Positions 34,525 to 42,998 of a DNA stretch of 64,000 bases are shown here, in pieces. The stretch is taken from assembly GCF_032191835.1 (NCBI RefSeq), contig NC_083229.1, forward strand, positions 79,298,001 through 79,362,000, given 5' to 3'. The notes under the pieces were generated by a model that made no database searches, was not told the origin of the DNA, and saw only the letters and a list, made by a program, of their open reading frames with translations. The translations under genes and the position numbers were made by a program. How positions within the stretch are numbered: the stretch's first letter is position 1; each line of letters starts with the position of its first letter. The DNA comes from Heteronotia binoei. Taxonomy: Eukaryota.

Positions 34525-36399
34525 TGGAAAGCAATCTCCTGCAGACTGGCACTGAAGTGAGCTTTAAACTACTATTTTCTGCTCTCCAGAGGAGCCTGGA
34601 GTACTAAAAGATAGATGGACTGCAGATATTTTATGAGAAACTGTCAGAAGAAGAGCAGGGTAAATGTTTTTTTTTTCCCCTATCTTTTTTGAGCCATGCA
34701 CTACATCATTGTACAATTTCTTCCAGAGTCTTGTACATTTAAGAGAAGAAATTAATTGGTTGCTAATGATAATTTCTTTTCCTGGGTCCCCTCTTTTTCA
34801 CTCGTTTAATTCTGTTTTATTCTTTTTAAAATATTCACTCGGAGGCCCTCTGCTTAACCACAGTTGCAGAAAATCAGTACCATTTGCACTGAAATATTTA
34901 TAATGACAGAATGAAAAATTGGATTCATTTTCTGGCTTGTAGCCGAACAGTCGGCAACTTTGTGCAGCATTGTTTAGCATCTCTCTTTCTTAGTTCTTTT
35001 TTTCTGGGAATTGTCTTTCTGCACATGCACAAGCAGGAGATGCTTTGTAGGAATGCATGGGAAAACATCATCTCTCTCTTAGTCTGTCTAATCTCAGCAA
35101 TGAGAAAGCAAGTATTGTACAACCTGTCAACCATTTATAGTATGTGTTGTGGGGGGGAGAGAAGGTGGAACAAGTAGGGAAGATTAAGAAAGATGACATA
35201 CAGTAATCTATTTTGTGCAAGGGAGCAGTGCACAGATGGAATTCAGAGGCTTACTTCAGTGTATTTGTTGATAGGTAATGTGTTGACTAACATTAAATGG
35301 AATGCCTGGAACTTCCTGCTCATTCTTGTTCTATCAGTGACTCTTGAGTGCCAGACTAGATGTTGCAAACTAGATGTATAAGACACAGAGACAGGTATTA
35401 CTCCTGTCCTTTACTCAACAGAGAAAAGCAGCTTGGAAAGCTGATAGTGAGTGGAATAATGGCCAGAAACAAAATGGTTTACCAGCTGTCCCTGCATTCT
35501 TCCACCCAAACTGGCCAAGTGCTGAGGTTGCATTGGGACACTGTTACCCACATTCCCTATGTAATGTCTGGTTGTGAAAAGTTGTGGTGTACATAAAGCC
35601 AGTTTTTAAAAACCACTTTCTGCTTATGCTTTGGGAATTCTACATAGACAAATGCTGCATACAGTTTAAACATATCAATACACAAATAAGTTCTTACAAC
35701 ACAAAGAAGTGAAGTTTTTGTGACTTATTTTTTATTTGGAAACCATGTTTGAATGGAGAAAAGAGTATCTGATACAGACTGCCAGATCAGGAATATGCAG
35801 AAGACCTTCTACACATCAGAGATAGTTTCTTGAAACAAATTGCATTGTTGCAACAGGATTTGCTCTATTGCCTTCCTGTAGCCAGTTCAAGGTGCAGGTT
35901 ATGACATACAAATTCATAAATGACCTGGGCTGAAATTACCATTGTGACAAACTTCATTGCTCCCTCAGTCGGAATAAAGAGGTGGACACAAGTGAGTTGG
36001 TAAAACTATGGGCCGCTTCATTAAATAAACACAGCAGCGGCAACCAAACTGCGGCCAGGTCAGGGCCAGGGGTCTCCAAAGACCGCTCCCCTGCCTTTTA
36101 ACGGGCGAGAGACCCGGCCCCCCCCAGCCAGAGCTATGTATCACAGCTCCCATCAGGCAGGCCCAGCAGGGAGGCACGCACCAGAGGGCCCAGTCACCAG
36201 ACACGCATCTCAGCAAAAGGCACCCATCCGATCGAGTCTCCAGGACAGTCTGCATTCACACACCTTGGGTCGCCAATACCCAAAGGTTGATCCTGCCAGA
36301 CCCCTAACTCCCCAAAAGGGGGAGGCTAACTGGTCCTCCCCAGGCTGCATGGCACCATAAACCCAGTAAAACTTGCCACAACTAAGGCCAAGTCTCTAC

Positions 36400-36975
36400 T
36401 TAGGGCTTAGCACTCACTGGAAGGCTCAACGCCAACGCAAACCCTTGCCAAAGATCCCTCAGGAAAAGCATATTACCCTTTTCCGAGAGATGTACCCCAT
36501 CCCCTCTGTAGAGGTCAGGATACTTCATAGAAATATCTGGATGGGGCAAATAGTGGCCCCAACCACCCTCCAATGCCTTATAAATCTCCTTATTCGCTCT
36601 GTAACGAGTCCTCTCTATCCCAGCTGGATTCCAAGCACTGCACCACAGCAAGCGCGGAATCATGGCCATCTCTTCCTAATGTATTTGAAATCGTCTCGAG
36701 CTTGCAAGATCAAAGCCTTGCCCTTAATCAGGCCGAGATCATCCCCCCCAGGTGAATAATTAAAACCTGAGGAGGCAGGACCACACTCCCATGAAATAAA
36801 AGTGGAAGCAAACCAGGCCACTGAAGACCTCAGCACCCCCGCCATTCCACAGTAACATATTGGCTGAGTCCCAGCTGAGAGCCAACAGCAGTTCTCTGAG
36901 CCTGATGTGCCGCCCAAAACACATAACTGTGCCTACAGATAAGAACTCAGCTCCTCCGGCCAGGAACAACAGCAT
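36400..36975 (-). pseudogene. SGNH/GDSL hydrolase (esterase) ORF of the Ngaro element, disrupted
   Basis: Reconstructed across three frames: AVVPGRRS*VLICRHSYVFWAAHQAQRTAVGSQLGLSQYVTVEWRGC*GLQWPGLLPLLF..VLIIHLGG / DLGLIKGKALILQARDDF..RWP / MIPRLLW..YRGDGVHLSEKGN. Block I (G>R)HS, block III GG(N)D and block V DxxH are recognisable. Confidence 0.88.
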
Positions 36976-37002
36976 CTAAAGAGAAAAAAACAAACAAGTT
37001 AT
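36976..37002 (-). other. Predicted 3' splice acceptor preceding the hydrolase
   Basis: Minus strand ATAAC (candidate branch point), then TTGTTTGTTTTTTTCTCTTTAG|ATGCT. Confidence 0.65.
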
Positions 37003-37041
37003 AAAACCTAAACAGAACTACCCTAACTCCACTGAACAAAG

Positions 37042-37931
37042 CTAAGAGTGGAGCAAAGAGCGAATATAACACTTATAAGCCCGAGACCGCCAACGGCCAA
37101 GGCGCTGGATGGACAAGGAAGAATATCTCAAAGCCACGGCCGTAGAGACCGCCCCAATTCTAAAGGAGTGGGTACCACTAAGGCCCTAGACGTCACTGCC
37201 CAAAACTGATGTTTTGTCAGAGGGCTGCCTCCAGAATGACAAAACAACAACCCTTCGCAGCCTCCCCGCACCGCCAAATAATCAGCCAATGCAGAAACCG
37301 GGCAAAGCTCCACCTCCGAACAAGGACCCAGCTCCACTACAGTCCCAATGCCCTGCTGGTCCATCTTGGAACGGCGAACGGTAAGAGCCGCCTTACCCCC
37401 TGTCAACCTAACATCCCTAAGTGACAACGCCCTACCAGAAACATCCTTCCTGGAGCTTGCCACTAACTCACTGATCCTAAGTGCCCCAAAAAAGGCCACC
37501 AAAGAGGCTGCATGAAGCAAAACAGCCTCAAAGTGAGATGCACAAACTGCACTCCAAACCCCCTTCAAACCCCTAAGAATCTCAGGAGACATAGGGGTCC
37601 TGGTGTCAGGATTAGGCCCAACCTCTCTGGACCACCCTTCCAGCATCTTTCAAATACGAAAATCTGCTGTTTCCTCCTTATACCCCAACGCCTTGCTAGC
37701 AAAAGCAAGCGCAGACAGGTGTCCTCTAATCGATCGCATGGCCAATCCCTTACCTTTTAAGGAAACACAATAATGGAGCAACAGCTCCACTGGGAGGGGC
37801 CAAAAAATGTGATACCCTGCCTCGGCCCTAAAGTCTTCAAACTGCCGCACAGCACGTTTGTAAGACTTTCTGGTGCTATGCGCAATGGCTATGCCTATCG
37901 CTCTGCAGGCCTCTGCTCTCCAATCAGCCAT
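37042..37931 (-). pseudogene. Tyrosine recombinase ORF, disrupted
   Basis: N-terminal STRKSYKRAVRQF..SALAF, a TGA at 37650-37652, FFGALRISELV (catalytic R), RSKMDQ and CPV. After a deletion/frameshift near 37175 it reads HSFRIGAVSTA..IQRLGRWRSRAYKCYIR (HxxR, W and Y). Confidence 0.93.
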
Positions 37932-39595
37932 AGCTCCTGGGGCATTAGCGCCGCCTCTTGATCAGCATCCGGGGCCAACTGACGAAACCTCTCCATCTGT
38001 TTACGAGAGAGAGCGTCAGCCACCCCGTTATTCACCCCAGGAACATGCTTAGTCAAAAACAAAATGTTAAGCCACAGGCAACACAGAGTGAAGGCCCTCA
38101 CCAACCTCATAACCCTTTGTGATTTGGATAAAAGGGAATTAATAACATGAACAACAGCCATCTTATCACACCAAAAATGTACGGTGCGATCGACCATATC
38201 ACTCCCCCACAACCAAACCGCAACTAAAATGGGAAAAAATTCTAAAAAAGTGAGATCCCGGGTCAAACCAGCCTGCACCCATGAATCCAGCCACACCTCC
38301 ATGCACCAGTGTCCACGGAAGTAGACCCCAAAACCTAATGACCCAGCAGCATCGGACATGACCTGAAGCTCCGCCTCAAGTCTCATGTCCTCTCTCAAAA
38401 AAGAAATCCCATTAAAGGATTCCAAAAACTCCTGCCACACCTGCAGGTCCTCCTTCATACTGCTGGTAATCCTAGTCCTGTGCTGGGGCAAGCGAAGGCC
38501 CGCCATAGCATCACAGAACCTGCGAAGAAAGGCCCTTCCAGGGGCAACCACTTTGCAAGCAAAGTTAAGATGCCCAACTAACTGCTGAAACTCAAGAAGC
38601 ATAACCTTCTTCTTGAGGAAGAAAGTACTAATCCTACTCCTTAAATCCTCCAGCTTCTGACAAGGAATCCTGGACGATTGCCCAAGGGTGTCCAATTCAA
38701 TTCCCAAAAACACAAGGCATTGGGCCAGGCCCTCAGTTTTTTCCTCGGCCAATGTCACACCCAACTCAGCAGCCAGCTCAATAAAGCCAGACAACAACTG
38801 AGCGCAAGGTCCAGTACCCACAGGACCCACAAACAGATAGTCATCCAAATAATGAACAGCATCCTGTAAACCCACTTTCTCGCGCACAGCGCATTCAAGA
38901 AATGTGCTGAAACACTCGAAAGCAGCACATGATACAGAGCAGCCCATAGGCAAAGCCCTGTCCATGTAAAATTGCCCTGCAAAAAGAAACCCAAAAGCTC
39001 GAAATCATCTGGATGGACAGGGAGAAGGCGAAATGCAGATTTGATATTGCATTTAGCCAGCTCAGCCCCCTGACCACAGTGTCGAACGACACCCACGGCC
39101 TGATCAAAGGTAGTATATCTAACTGAGCAAAGTTCCTCAGGAATCCCATCATTAACAGAAGAACCCTTGGGGTAAGAAAGGTGGTGAATCAAACAAAATT
39201 CACCAGGCGCCTTCTTTGGTACCACCCCCAAAGGGGAAACCCTAAGGTTAACCACTGGAGGACTAGAAAATGGGCCCAAAATCCTGCCCTCCGCCAGCTC
39301 CTTGGCAATCTTAGCCTCCACTACATGTTCTAAACCATTAACCGAACTAAGGTTCTGAGACCAAGTTGGCACCCAAGAACCTTGAAAAGGAATTCTAAAA
39401 CCCAATGTAAAACCATTCAACAAATATAAACTCCCTACGCGGGTACCTGCGTAGCCACCACTCAAGAGGTCCCAGCTTTATCGGGCTGGGGCCCCTTTCC
39501 AGTTTGGGAAGAACCCCCACTCCCACCCTGTCTCTTCTGGCCCTTACGTGGCCAAACTCTTGGACAAGGAGTGTGGGCCAGCACACAGGGGGCAT
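37895..39595 (-). pseudogene. Reverse transcriptase-RNase H ORF, frameshifted
   Basis: GFRIP, SPLGVVPKK, LIHHLSYP, IKSAFRLLPV, LPMG, YLDD (38851-38840), FLGIELD; RNase H residues SDAAG, LEFF, WCD and VADALSR. Frameshifts near 39430 and 38985. Confidence 0.95.
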
Positions 39596-40796
39596 TCATG
39601 CTTGAACTGGCAAGCTTTCCGACTGCACACCCCCTGTGACCCAAACTCCCAACAAAGCAAGCGGGGTTGAACCACCTGCCCCGCTGAACCGCGGGAAGAT
39701 GATGAAGAAGTAACCTGAGAAGAGGAAGCCTTAGCAACTAAATGGCCGCTGTCAGAGCGGTCGCCCAAATTGGGCCGAGCCGGTGACATAACTTGCAGCC
39801 ACAGTTGCTGGTAGATGCAATCCCAGGGAAGGGAAGGGTACAAAGCGGCCCTCATCCTGAATTCCTTGTCATACTGAATCCAGGCCGGGCCACTAAACAT
39901 CGTGTACCCTTTGTATATAATGTCCATATACTGGATCAGCGCTGCCACCCACCAGGGCTAAGCATGCGCTATCACTCCAGCATACACAAAAAAACTACCT
40001 TTCAATCCACCTTCATCTTTTTCAACTTCTCCTTGTCCTTATCATCAAGATCCTCCTTGTCTTTCTTTTCAAGTTCCCTAAATAAAAGGGAGAATAGATC
40101 CACATATTCCCCCTTAAGGATCTTTTCTTTTGTGGCTGGTAACAGGTAATCACCCAAAAGTAGGGCAACCTCACCAAAGGGCATAGCACCAAAAGGGACT
40201 GCCCCATAAGGGGAAGGTAAACCCCAACCCCGGTTAAGGAGGGTGCCACCCCTTGCTGCCTTGCCTCTGGCCAATTCCCAAACGATCCAAACTGGCCTTG
40301 TGGCCAGGACCAGCTAGCTTGAGGCCCTACACCTCCAGAGGGAGTAGAGAGTGAACTCCCAGGTGCCAAACTCGCACCATTAGGCGCAGCAGGGCCCCAT
40401 GGCCAAACAAGCCCCACAAAGGCACTAGAACCATCACCCGACTTACCTGGATCTCTGGCAGGTACCAAAGCAGTACCTGCACCCCCAGAGCCAGAAGACG
40501 AGCCAGATCCTGCATCAGGAGCACCCGAGCCCACAGCTCCACCTGCTGTAGCAGCAGACCTGCCCTCTAAAATAGATAATTGTGTTAATATATCGGCCTG
40601 AAAAGCCATTTTTGAAACCGGACCCTTTTTAAAATTCAACTAAGGTGGCAACCCCAGCACCTGCTCAAGGGCACGCAGCCTCCCTAGGATAGCTGCATTC
40701 GCCTCATCCTCCCCCTCCTCATCTTCTGCGGAGGTTTTGGAGCCTTCGGGCAGGCTGCTTCCCCATTGATTTCCCTGTCTCTTTTCTTCCAGACAT
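39544..40796 (-). pseudogene. Gag-like ORF1, disrupted
   Basis: ATG at 40796; acidic tract; helical repeats AILGRLRALEQ and DILTQLSILEG; Gly/Ser linker; KEKILKGEYVDLFSLL; AWIQYDKEFRMRAA; C-terminal CWEF..C..C.FKHECPLCAGPH zinc knuckle. Stops at 40640-40642 and about 40002, plus frameshifts. Confidence 0.88.
40441..40449 (-). other. Predicted 5' splice donor inside gag
   Basis: Minus strand CAG|GTAAGT (full consensus); the exon ends at 40447 in codon phase 1 of gag. Confidence 0.6.
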
Positions 40797-40868
40797 TATC
40801 ACAAGCCCAGGAAAAATTAACCTGAACCAAAAATTATTATTCTAACAGACCAAAAATTAAACCAGCCT

Positions 40869-41100
40869 AAAATGGCTGCCAAATGTCCTGCCCGTAAAAT
40901 GGCCTCCTAACAGCCACCCAAAATAGCCCCCAGAAAATAAAACTAAAATGGCTGCCCAGCCACAAGGTACAAAGGCCTCCAAACAGCAACTAAAATGGCT
41001 GCCCAGCCACAAGGTACAAAGGCCTCCAAACAGCAAACTAAAATGGCCACCCCTACTGTAACCCAAAATGGCCACCCAGCAATTCAACTAAAATGGCCAC
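40869..41100. repeat. Array of AAAATGGC motifs with about 24-25 bp periodicity in the element's leader
   Basis: Motif at 40869, 40896, 40945, 40992, 41040, 41065 and 41090, with a degenerate copy at 40920; includes a 47-bp tandem duplication. Confidence 0.9.
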
Positions 41101-42998
41101 CCAGCCGTGAGGCAACAGGATAGGAGGGTGGGGGGGTACCCAAAGTTGGCCTCCAATATAGGCAACCCTGTCAATAACACACGTACCCCACCAACTCCCC
41201 CCGACCTGGCAGAACAACTAAGCTAGGCAGAATAAAAAAGGGTTTAAAAGGACCGAAAAAGCCTCGCCACGCTGCTAAACGCGGTTTTGTTTTGTTTTTT
41301 TTACAACCAACCATGACCACGAAATCACGTCTGCCGATGATCCGCTGGCCCAGGCACCGCAGGTCCCAAGCTAGGCAAACACAGCCCCGATGCGCCCCGA
41401 TCACGGCCCTGGTGCGACGCGATTGCCAAGATACGGCCTCGAAGCCTATTCCCTCGGTGCCGCAGAGAGGACGCTGCACACTCCTCTCAGACCGAGCATT
41501 GACAAGGGACTGACAAGAGGGGGCAGAGAGCCTCTAGAGGCACGTTCAAGCCCCGTCCCCATAAAGACGTGCCTAAAGCGCGTGCAGAAGTCCACTCTCC
41601 CTCCAGGGAGGCAAAAGTTCCTCGGCAGCAAAGCTGCGAGACGGCAAGCTGCCGGAGATTGCATTATGACTTGTAAAGCCAGCCAAGAGCACCCTTGTAA
41701 GTTTTACTATCTACATGTCAAGTGCTTTTAGATGAAGGGCTAGGGACCAGATCAGATTTTGCTGGCTGATATTCACCTCAAAATAACTCTCCCCAGCAAC
41801 AGTAGTCAAGTGGCTCATGAGCCTCATGCATGACTTCTGCCATGCCTGATTCATCCCAAGAAAATTGAGCTGAACCCTAGAGTCCTGCGTGATGTAATAT
41901 CCATGTGCAGCAGAACACCCAGCCAGATCAGAAGCTCTGTGGACCTGTCTTTATGTTTCCAGCCTATGATCTCAAAAGGTATGATAGTCATCAGCGGGCC
42001 TCATTTTGGGCAGGAGTTCATCAGTCCTAAAACAGGCTACCAGCAGTAAAGGTAGAAAAGGAGCTAGAAATTTAGGATATTCTCAGATGACATGCATTGG
42101 GTGGCATCAACACACAGAGAGAATGGGTATGCTGGGCCCATCCCCACCTATATGCAATTACTAGAATATGTGAACAATGATTACAAGTGTACAAACTGTG
42201 TATATATAAATTCTGTCTCCATGAATGGGAATGCTGCTTGCCAGGACATGTGAATGGTATCTATTGCAAATGCATGTAGGTAGGAAGGGTAGGGTTCATG
42301 TTCATGTTGAGACCTATATCATCTAAAGAAGGCTTGATACTGACAGGACTAATTCTCAGTCATGTTCTGGCTATTTGTGTGGTGAAAAGGTCTTTTAGTG
42401 AAATCACATGAACAATGCAATACACGGATAATTGTGTGAAATGCAGGCTGTGGGTGGTACAACAAAAAGCACAGAGAGGACAGGTGCATGGATACTATTT
42501 ATATTTCAGTGACGTGGGAAAAAAATTGTTCTCTATAATAGCAGAGTTAATGGTCAAATGCCTAGCAACAGTGCAACAAAACAGGTCAATAAACAGTCAA
42601 AGTAATATGTAGGGAAATGCCTTGTAAATTTTAAAAAAGAAGGAATTCCTTCTCCATTCTCAAAATGGCCTAATGAAAATTGAGCATGCTTATTGATACA
42701 AGCGATAAAATGCTGAAGGCAGCTGAGTACCACTTAATGGAAAGAAACAGAAATTGTGCGGGATGAGTGAATGGCCTGTTTAAGGCCCTTAATACTTCTA
42801 AAATTTTGGGAAATGTGATCCATTCACCCTCTATCCCCAGCCTCCACTTTCTGAAGTTCCCTGTATAACTAAGGCAGGCAAAAATTCCCTTTTCCATACT
42901 CAACACTAACCACTTAGATAAACTTTCTTACAGAATTATGTTACAGAGGGAAGTCAGTTCCTCCACATGCATACCCGATATAAATTCTTGTGGGTGAC

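Follow-up and report, generated by a model that had tools for sequence, protein, structure and literature searches.

The window analysed here, a 64,000-nt stretch of the Heteronotia binoei genome (NC_083229.1, positions 79,298,001 to 79,362,000), carries on its minus strand a decayed 5.7-kb retrotransposon (41665-35955) in which gag is followed by reverse transcriptase and RNase H (RT/RH), a tyrosine recombinase (YR) and an SGNH hydrolase. Its sequence assigns the element to Ngaro, by its repeat layout, the overlapping frames of gag, RT/RNase H and YR, and the hydrolase placed after YR. PAT-like elements have the same repeat layout, and a hydrolase 3’ of YR is given as a Ngaro trait in the cited passages of PMC9210276 and PMC7192593; no Pfam match to a methyltransferase domain was found after RNase H, whose end overlaps the start of YR. 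Our analysis indicates, with a probability that we put at roughly 0.9, that in this family the downstream genes are reached by alternative splicing, all from a single phase-1 donor within gag. The features are listed below in the direction of transcription, with exon boundaries marked by a slash.

35955..41665, minus strand: decayed Ngaro-type tyrosine-recombinase retrotransposon (A1-gag-RT/RH-YR-SGNH-B1), delimited by ends common to many copies and by its domains.
41490..41665, minus strand: split direct repeat A1 (inner end approximate), recurring after B1 in the complete copies L038, L041 and L120.
40447..40796, minus strand: shared coding exon 1, specifying a basic N-terminus, a Pro/acidic patch, a pair of short amphipathic helices and a Gly/Ser/Ala linker; frameshifted here.
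40441..40449, minus strand: splice donor CAG/GTAAGT, phase 1, on the Gly-Lys codons of gag (Gly-Arg in some subfamilies).
39462..40446, minus strand: remainder of gag, with the core and the zinc finger, which would be translated from unspliced RNA alone; open in L083 and related to database Gags.
37895..39600, minus strand: RT and RNase H (start approximate, overlapping the end of gag), from PF00078 (E 1.6e-6) and the reading frames.
37997..38025, minus strand: second splice acceptor, GCTGAC...CTCTCTCGTAAACAG/, exon start 37996, phase 1, within the RNase H codons A-D-A-L-S-R-K-Q.
37042..37996, minus strand: tyrosine recombinase exon (PF02899), broken here, with its own ATG at 37931, 21 codons past the acceptor.
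36976..37010, minus strand: SGNH splice acceptor, with a TnAY branch-like site, a polypyrimidine tract and TAG/.
36400..36975, minus strand: SGNH hydrolase exon (blocks GHS, G, GGND, DGVH; stop 36402-36400), with premature stops and frameshifts here.
35955..36377, minus strand: split direct repeat B1, with an AATAAA-like signal near 36020 that is intact in L041.

The window copy has A1 and B1 and no A2-B2, whereas the full set of A1...B1-A2-B2 split direct repeats is present in L120, L038, L041, L083 and others. It is non-functional, as the preliminary description had stated: the 350-nt exon 1 is frameshifted and exon 2 carries premature stops and frameshifts. The YR stop codon lies at 37044-37042. 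A 20-base acceptor sequence used as a probe has 1343 exact matches in the 2.63-Gb genome, corresponding to more than 1,300 family copies.

The preliminary description, made from the letters of the window, had proposed a spliced mRNA that fuses the N-terminus of Gag to the SGNH hydrolase. On re-reading the sequence we found both sites exactly as claimed: a donor ATCCAG/GTAAGT in phase 1 with the exon ending at 40447, and an acceptor ...TTTTTTTCTCTTTAG/ with the exon starting at 36975, separated by a 3471-nt intron. By a simple, self-made score (with approximate donor frequencies) the donor ranked first of the 380 GT sites in the element and the SGNH acceptor first of its 394 AG sites.

The donor is conserved in a manner that follows the bases rather than the protein. 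We compared 60 sequences, consisting of the window and 59 copies chosen by DNA similarity (39 of the 41 matches of one search and 20 of the 40 of another); GTAAG occurred in 37 of the 43 in which the site could be mapped. Across 20 subfamily clusters with pairwise identity down to 50%, G/GT was present in 51 of 55 copies, and the donor Gly codon was GGT throughout, a codon that serves only 34% of other Gly positions. Donor positions +2, +3 and +5 were invariant over the clusters, as compared with 0.65 and 0.46 at exon positions -3 and -2 and a mean of 0.63 at third codon positions. The following codon was either AAG or AGG, so that the base pattern is preserved rather than the residue. The distance from the gag ATG (40796 in the window) to the donor equalled 1 modulo 3 in 28/36 copies, and an unshifted exon 1 comprises 120-128 codons before the donor, including helices with motifs of the R-L-x-x-L-E type. 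Conservation and phase among copies thus came out as the proposal predicts. Two further strong and conserved donor-like sites occur within YR (AAG/GTAAGG at 37754 and GGG/GTAAGG at 37397).

Conservation of the SGNH acceptor likewise bears out the proposal: TAG was found in 50/51 mappable copies of the same 60 sequences, an unbiased count. A larger survey, of 99 copies and excluding eight special loci, gave YAG in 99/99, a figure that is partly circular in that many copies were found with AG-containing probes. The intron side of the acceptor diverges among subfamilies, yet is 88% pyrimidine, and a TnAY site lies 17-24 nt upstream in 96/99 copies. The upstream spacer occurs in all three phases, and column conservation climbs from about 0.7 to 0.99 across the acceptor.

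Downstream of the acceptor, blocks I, II, III and V of an SGNH hydrolase are present with their Ser, Gly, Asn and Asp/His residues, and the open copy L046 matches PF13472 (E 6e-7, slightly below the curated cut-off). In a survey of 87 copies (two special loci excluded) the catalytic S, G, N, D and H were retained in 75, 79, 70, 81 and 79 copies, respectively. Variants shared between copies in this frame comprised 158 synonymous and 106 non-synonymous changes, as compared with 86 and 279 among singletons, a pattern indicating purifying selection on the SGNH frame in active lineages.

The most direct evidence comes from genomic copies in which the intron is missing. Probes for the start of exon 2 without the preceding intron matched the genome four times, and two of these matches were exact, in-frame joins of exon 1 to exon 2 (L092 on C9 and L093 on C21); the other candidates, L090 and L091, were rejected as other repeats inserted at the SGNH acceptor. 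Searching for exon 1 with a base other than G after it returned ten matches: L092, L093, a third SGNH join (L202 on C1), a join to YR, and six donors altered by point mutation, which were discarded as joins. Three gag-SGNH joined copies are thus available (L092/L119, L093/L120 and L202/L212), and in each the breakpoints coincide to the base with the donor and acceptor of the most closely related copy that keeps the intron, two sites that have just one G in common. L120 is complete from A1 to B2, L119 comprises A1, B1, A2 and part of B2, and L212 reaches A2. L202 is 94-95% identical to L176 and derives from an RT-less, non-autonomous subfamily.

In a 23-row tree of exon 1 the three joined copies grouped with different intron-bearing groups, and a single clade for them was rejected (approximately unbiased test, p = 5e-6; pairs, p = 2e-45, 7e-52 and 0.021). 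The best reading is that they arose by reverse transcription of spliced RNAs, and RNA splicing is almost certainly what generated the joins. Such copies are rare, with three gag-SGNH joins against at least 1343 copies with an unspliced acceptor, although pattern probes undercount and the number of joins is a lower bound. With three exact joins of independent origin, conserved sites and matching database proteins (below), the proposed Gag-N/SGNH mRNA is strongly supported.

A few loci show other joints at these sites. In L109/L121 (C7), a copy with a LINE-like element inserted at its gag donor, a GT inside RT (at about window position 39124) is joined out of frame to the SGNH acceptor, as a cryptic splice would do. 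L171/L172 (C5) and L195 (C8) start exactly at the SGNH or the YR acceptor after DNA foreign to the element, which may reflect an insertion or a chimeric splice product. Exons 1 and 2 of L120 cluster with different subfamilies, a sign of recombination between subfamilies.

The proposal was incomplete in one respect, in that the same donor also serves YR. The second acceptor coincides with the codon for Gln in the RNase H motif A-D-A-L-S-R-K-Q, is preceded by a GCTGAY branch-like site and opens in phase 1 into the YR frame. The AG-ending codon is CAG in 53/54 copies, as compared with 253/320 for nearby Gln codons, and between the acceptor and the YR ATG 12 of 13 stops fall on one CGA/CAA codon. 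A YR junction probe had seven matches; one (L192/L199, C2) is an exact, in-frame join of donor to YR, and five were set aside as unspliced variants. The acceptor also lies at the place that matches the Xenopus gene models described below. For RT we noted a weak acceptor candidate near 39555, an AG in phase 1 that falls on the C-P-R codons of the zinc finger (52/52 AG; AAG 32, CAG 8, TAG 6, GAG 6); GAG, the weakest form, is mostly found in the RT-less subfamily.

Splicing to the SGNH acceptor would leave 199 codons after the junction codon, giving a protein of about 320-330 aa rather than the 300 aa first estimated. In a structure model of one natural fusion (P0003; mean predicted local distance difference test score, pLDDT, 80.4), residues 34-52 and 74-89 are helical and the linker is disordered. 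The SGNH domain is modelled with confidence as an alpha/beta/alpha fold (pLDDT >90 over most of it), and its best structural matches are PAF-acetylhydrolase-like (PAF-AH-like) and GDSL esterases (E 5.6e-8). By this model, the fusion is likely to comprise Gag-N followed by a flexible linker and then an SGNH esterase. The sole match of the SGNH exon in a PDB sequence search was weak (4c1b, ‘ORF1-encoded protein’, E 0.34), an entry that we take to be the ZfL2-1 esterase. Among 18 squamate fusions, 17 carry at least one R-h-x-x-h-E motif and 11 carry two; this motif is described as a trimerisation motif in the cited passage of PMC5940361. No signal peptide or transmembrane segment was found in the 18 fusions (maximal 19-residue hydropathy 0.7-1.8) and their N-terminus is basic. 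The term ‘env-like’ used in the preliminary description therefore suits the splicing logic, a single splice seen through genomic joins, but not the product, which without a transmembrane-like stretch is not an envelope protein.

Proteins with the same architecture occur in other species. The natural joined open reading frame (ORF) of L093 retrieved 20 database proteins. In seven of them, which belong to Eublepharis and to two species of Anolis, coverage of this frame is 95% or more; the closest match is a Heteronotia protein covering 84%. In Eublepharis (leopard gecko), Gag and Gag-SGNH models share 44 and 49 identical residues and diverge after the same Gly, past which Gag continues with Lys. 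The same two-helix N-terminus precedes SGNH in proteins of Pogona, Hemicordylus, Elgaria and Rhineura, while Zootoca, frogs and a newt have long low-complexity N-termini there. In Xenopus one N-terminus is joined either to SGNH (P0084, P0199) or to YR (P0195, P0196, P0198, P0200), with P0084 and P0198 sharing 77 identical residues before they diverge after a Gly; frog and lizard N-termini have no sequence likeness. Conservation thus extends to the same Gly in Eublepharis; in Xenopus the shared part was not identified as Gag. One fusion, P0063, is encoded as a single protein on a 1677-base Logan contig.

We propose that a single transcript from A1 would either be left unspliced or be spliced from the gag donor to the YR or the SGNH acceptor. 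The unspliced RNA would give full Gag and would presumably also be the usual template for new copies; splicing to 37996 would join an N-terminal piece of Gag to YR, and splicing to 36975 would produce a Gag-N/linker/SGNH esterase of about 325 aa. Translation of the fusions is highly probable. Since spliced RNAs retain the terminal repeats, the element’s own RT and YR could occasionally copy them in trans, an activity described for the RT of Dictyostelium DIRS-1 in the cited part of PMC7192593. The basic tail and the two R-h-x-x-h-E helices would most likely act as an oligomerisation tag drawing esterase and recombinase into the Gag particle, where we regard the odds of actual co-assembly with Gag as about even. 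In turn, the esterase would target lipids or membranes, the role put forward for its ZfL2-1 ORF1p counterpart, although we rate a lipid role as somewhat less likely than not. A broader form of the proposal, for which we see slightly less than an even chance, is that in vertebrate Ngaro elements from frogs to lizards the shared Gag exon is a particle-loading tag on Gag, recombinase, esterase and perhaps RT that replaces the Gag-Pol polyprotein and protease of long terminal repeat (LTR) elements, and that host genes repeatedly took up the esterase exon by way of its ready-made acceptor.

A splice donor inside gag is known from avian sarcoma and leukosis viruses (ASLV). More generally, env of retroviruses and pol of foamy viruses are expressed from subgenomic mRNAs, and a spliced gag mRNA occurs in Ty1/Copia elements (PMC5294762, PMC5580714; cited passages). 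As in the retroviral and foamy-virus cases, a single primary transcript would here give the downstream genes by splicing, with the unspliced RNA as genome. Unlike retroviral Env, the fusion lacks both a signal peptide and a transmembrane segment and does not serve as an envelope; about 125 Gag residues would stay in the product, and integration is by a tyrosine recombinase. The nearest functional model, by analogy, would be ORF1p of the ZfL2-1 long interspersed element (LINE), in which an N-terminal coiled coil precedes an active, phospholipid-binding SGNH esterase (PMC3905857, cited passage). The parallel drawn by the preliminary description holds for the architecture, N-terminal helices (two predicted here) before an SGNH esterase, but is loose: ZfL2-1 ORF1p comes from a single ORF without splicing, stands in for Gag in a non-LTR element and forms an antiparallel dimer through a five-heptad coil, whereas the protein predicted here would arise by splicing and accompany Gag, and its two short helices bear the R-h-x-x-h-E trimer motif.

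The closest known elements are the amphibian Ngaro-like DIRS-53_XT and DIRS-54_XT, which, in the cited text of PMC9210276, share the A1...B1-A2-B2 repeats and the order gag, RT/RH, YR and SGNH hydrolase, the last ‘with no proven function’. They are presented as four overlapping ORFs, whereas here the hydrolase and YR would be exons fed by the gag donor; neither ‘splic’ nor ‘intron’ occurs in the main text of that paper. In their cited passages, Ngaro papers assign the hydrolase no known function, describe the element as a set of overlapping ORFs and are silent on how downstream ORFs get translated. What is known already is thus the element type and its hydrolase (PMC9210276, PMC6681497, PMC7192593; cited passages), and what appears new is the splicing to SGNH and YR and the joined copies. 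The earlier remark that this strategy is undescribed for Ngaro elements agrees with literature titles and abstract beginnings, where we found no spliced Ngaro gag-hydrolase or gag-YR mRNAs; the 2004 paper of Goodwin and Poulter, that of Poulter and Butler from 2015 and the supplements of PMC9210276 lay outside that scope and may mention splicing.

If correct, the proposal would account for how such elements produce their downstream proteins. It would also redefine the real proteins, for any biochemistry, as Gag-N/YR and Gag-N/SGNH, and explain a class of ‘uncharacterized’ RefSeq proteins of lizards and frogs as transposon splice products. One donor and two phase-matched acceptors specify exact junctions that are open to testing. 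The arrangement suggests a possible route to enzyme loading without a polyprotein, and in recreating the coiled-coil-plus-esterase layout of LINE ORF1p, splicing may point to convergence on a lipid-related step.

Several observations weigh against this interpretation. The joins are known here from genomic DNA, not from RNA reads; all four joined copies belong to one group of subfamilies, the junction probe of the genome found none of the window’s own subfamily, and a 17-row test gave no significant evidence that L119 and L120 arose independently (p = 0.06 and 0.19). An in-frame ATG occurs at scattered positions on the intron side of the SGNH acceptor in 23/99 copies, so the claim that the SGNH frame has no ATG of its own stands for the other 76. 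The case for the YR acceptor has its own weaknesses: its synonymous constraint rests on four sites (0.87 vs 0.75), it falls outside the top ten acceptor scores, and because YR has an ATG, this splice may serve mRNA supply more than fusion. No donor-to-RT join was found among the ten exon-1 probe matches or by another junction probe. The database fusions are mostly automated gene models known by protein sequence, and for the shared N-terminus of Xenopus the seven matches listed included no Gag core, with a probability of 0.2 in a further test.

The strongest competing explanation accepts that the splice sites are used and holds that Gag-N merely lends a start codon and leader, with no role in assembly. 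It would fit the long, length-variable, predicted disordered linker, the ATG retained by YR and the dissimilar N-termini of frog and lizard. However, in all subfamilies, as in Eublepharis, the donor lies about 125 codons into gag and past the two helices, and the R-h-x-x-h-E helices are retained in the squamate fusions as counted above; selection on the helices could in turn work through Gag alone. We consider this explanation somewhat doubtful, but the most credible of those that compete with a loading tag.

Alternatively, Gag-N/SGNH could be a self-restriction factor that controls copy number by poisoning Gag assembly through the shared helices, in the way that Ty1 p22, a truncated Gag, restricts its own element (PMC4551931, cited passage). 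Retention of gag, donor and SGNH exon in the RT-less, mostly YR-less subfamily would suit such a role. A mere poison would not need the catalytic residues, which are conserved in 70-81 of 87 copies, and this function seems to us unlikely.

In our judgement it is very unlikely that SGNH is made from a promoter inside the element, or from an ATG close by at which translation re-initiates, with the joins as incidental splicing of full-length RNA. The scarcity of joined copies, the cryptic donor of L121, the in-frame ATGs and the four overlapping ORFs given for Xenopus without mention of splicing (PMC9210276, main text) would all agree with it. Against it, 76 of the 99 copies lack an in-frame ATG, and where present the ATGs stand at differing places; the ATG at the acceptor itself was rejected as a start, being out of frame and opening a frame that is not under selection (25 synonymous/64 non-synonymous changes vs 46/37). 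The phase and donor bases are moreover preserved at synonymous sites, and the same parting point is seen in other species. That the joined copies are DNA-level deletions landing on GT-AG by chance is scarcely credible: internal deletions are frequent (44 joints in 101 copies), but the joints are scattered, only the spliced-type copies L120 and L121 reach the SGNH acceptor, and three copies of separate origin match both ends to the base with one base shared between the sites.

The SGNH domain of this family also occurs in what look like host proteins. Teleost proteins of 1400-2000 aa from Salminus, Scleropages and Gymnothorax (P0094, P0088, P0103; also P0135 and others) combine cold-shock/CSDE1-like domains with a C-terminal SGNH domain, likely an old host capture. 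Other host-like proteins end in this domain (P0089, P0180, P0056, P0074, P0044, P0127), which suggests repeated capture of the exon via its acceptor. Also seen were long proteins (1300-3100 aa) in which SGNH domains of this family occur several times (P0041 in Paroedura, P0050 in Eublepharis, and P0038, P0049 and P0051).

Within Heteronotia, several copies of the non-autonomous subfamily lack RT/RNase H and most of YR and keep gag, donor and SGNH exon; their joints run from about window position 39410 to 37264 (L122-L125, L176) or to about 37165 (L144, L175). A diverged subfamily of at least eight copies (L132-L137, L139, L140) has a shortened stretch within YR (window 37435 to 37177). Finally, the 5’ leader of the window copy (40916-41106) contains a 47-bp unit that occurs as two identical tandem copies, together with several repeats of the TAAAATGGC type.

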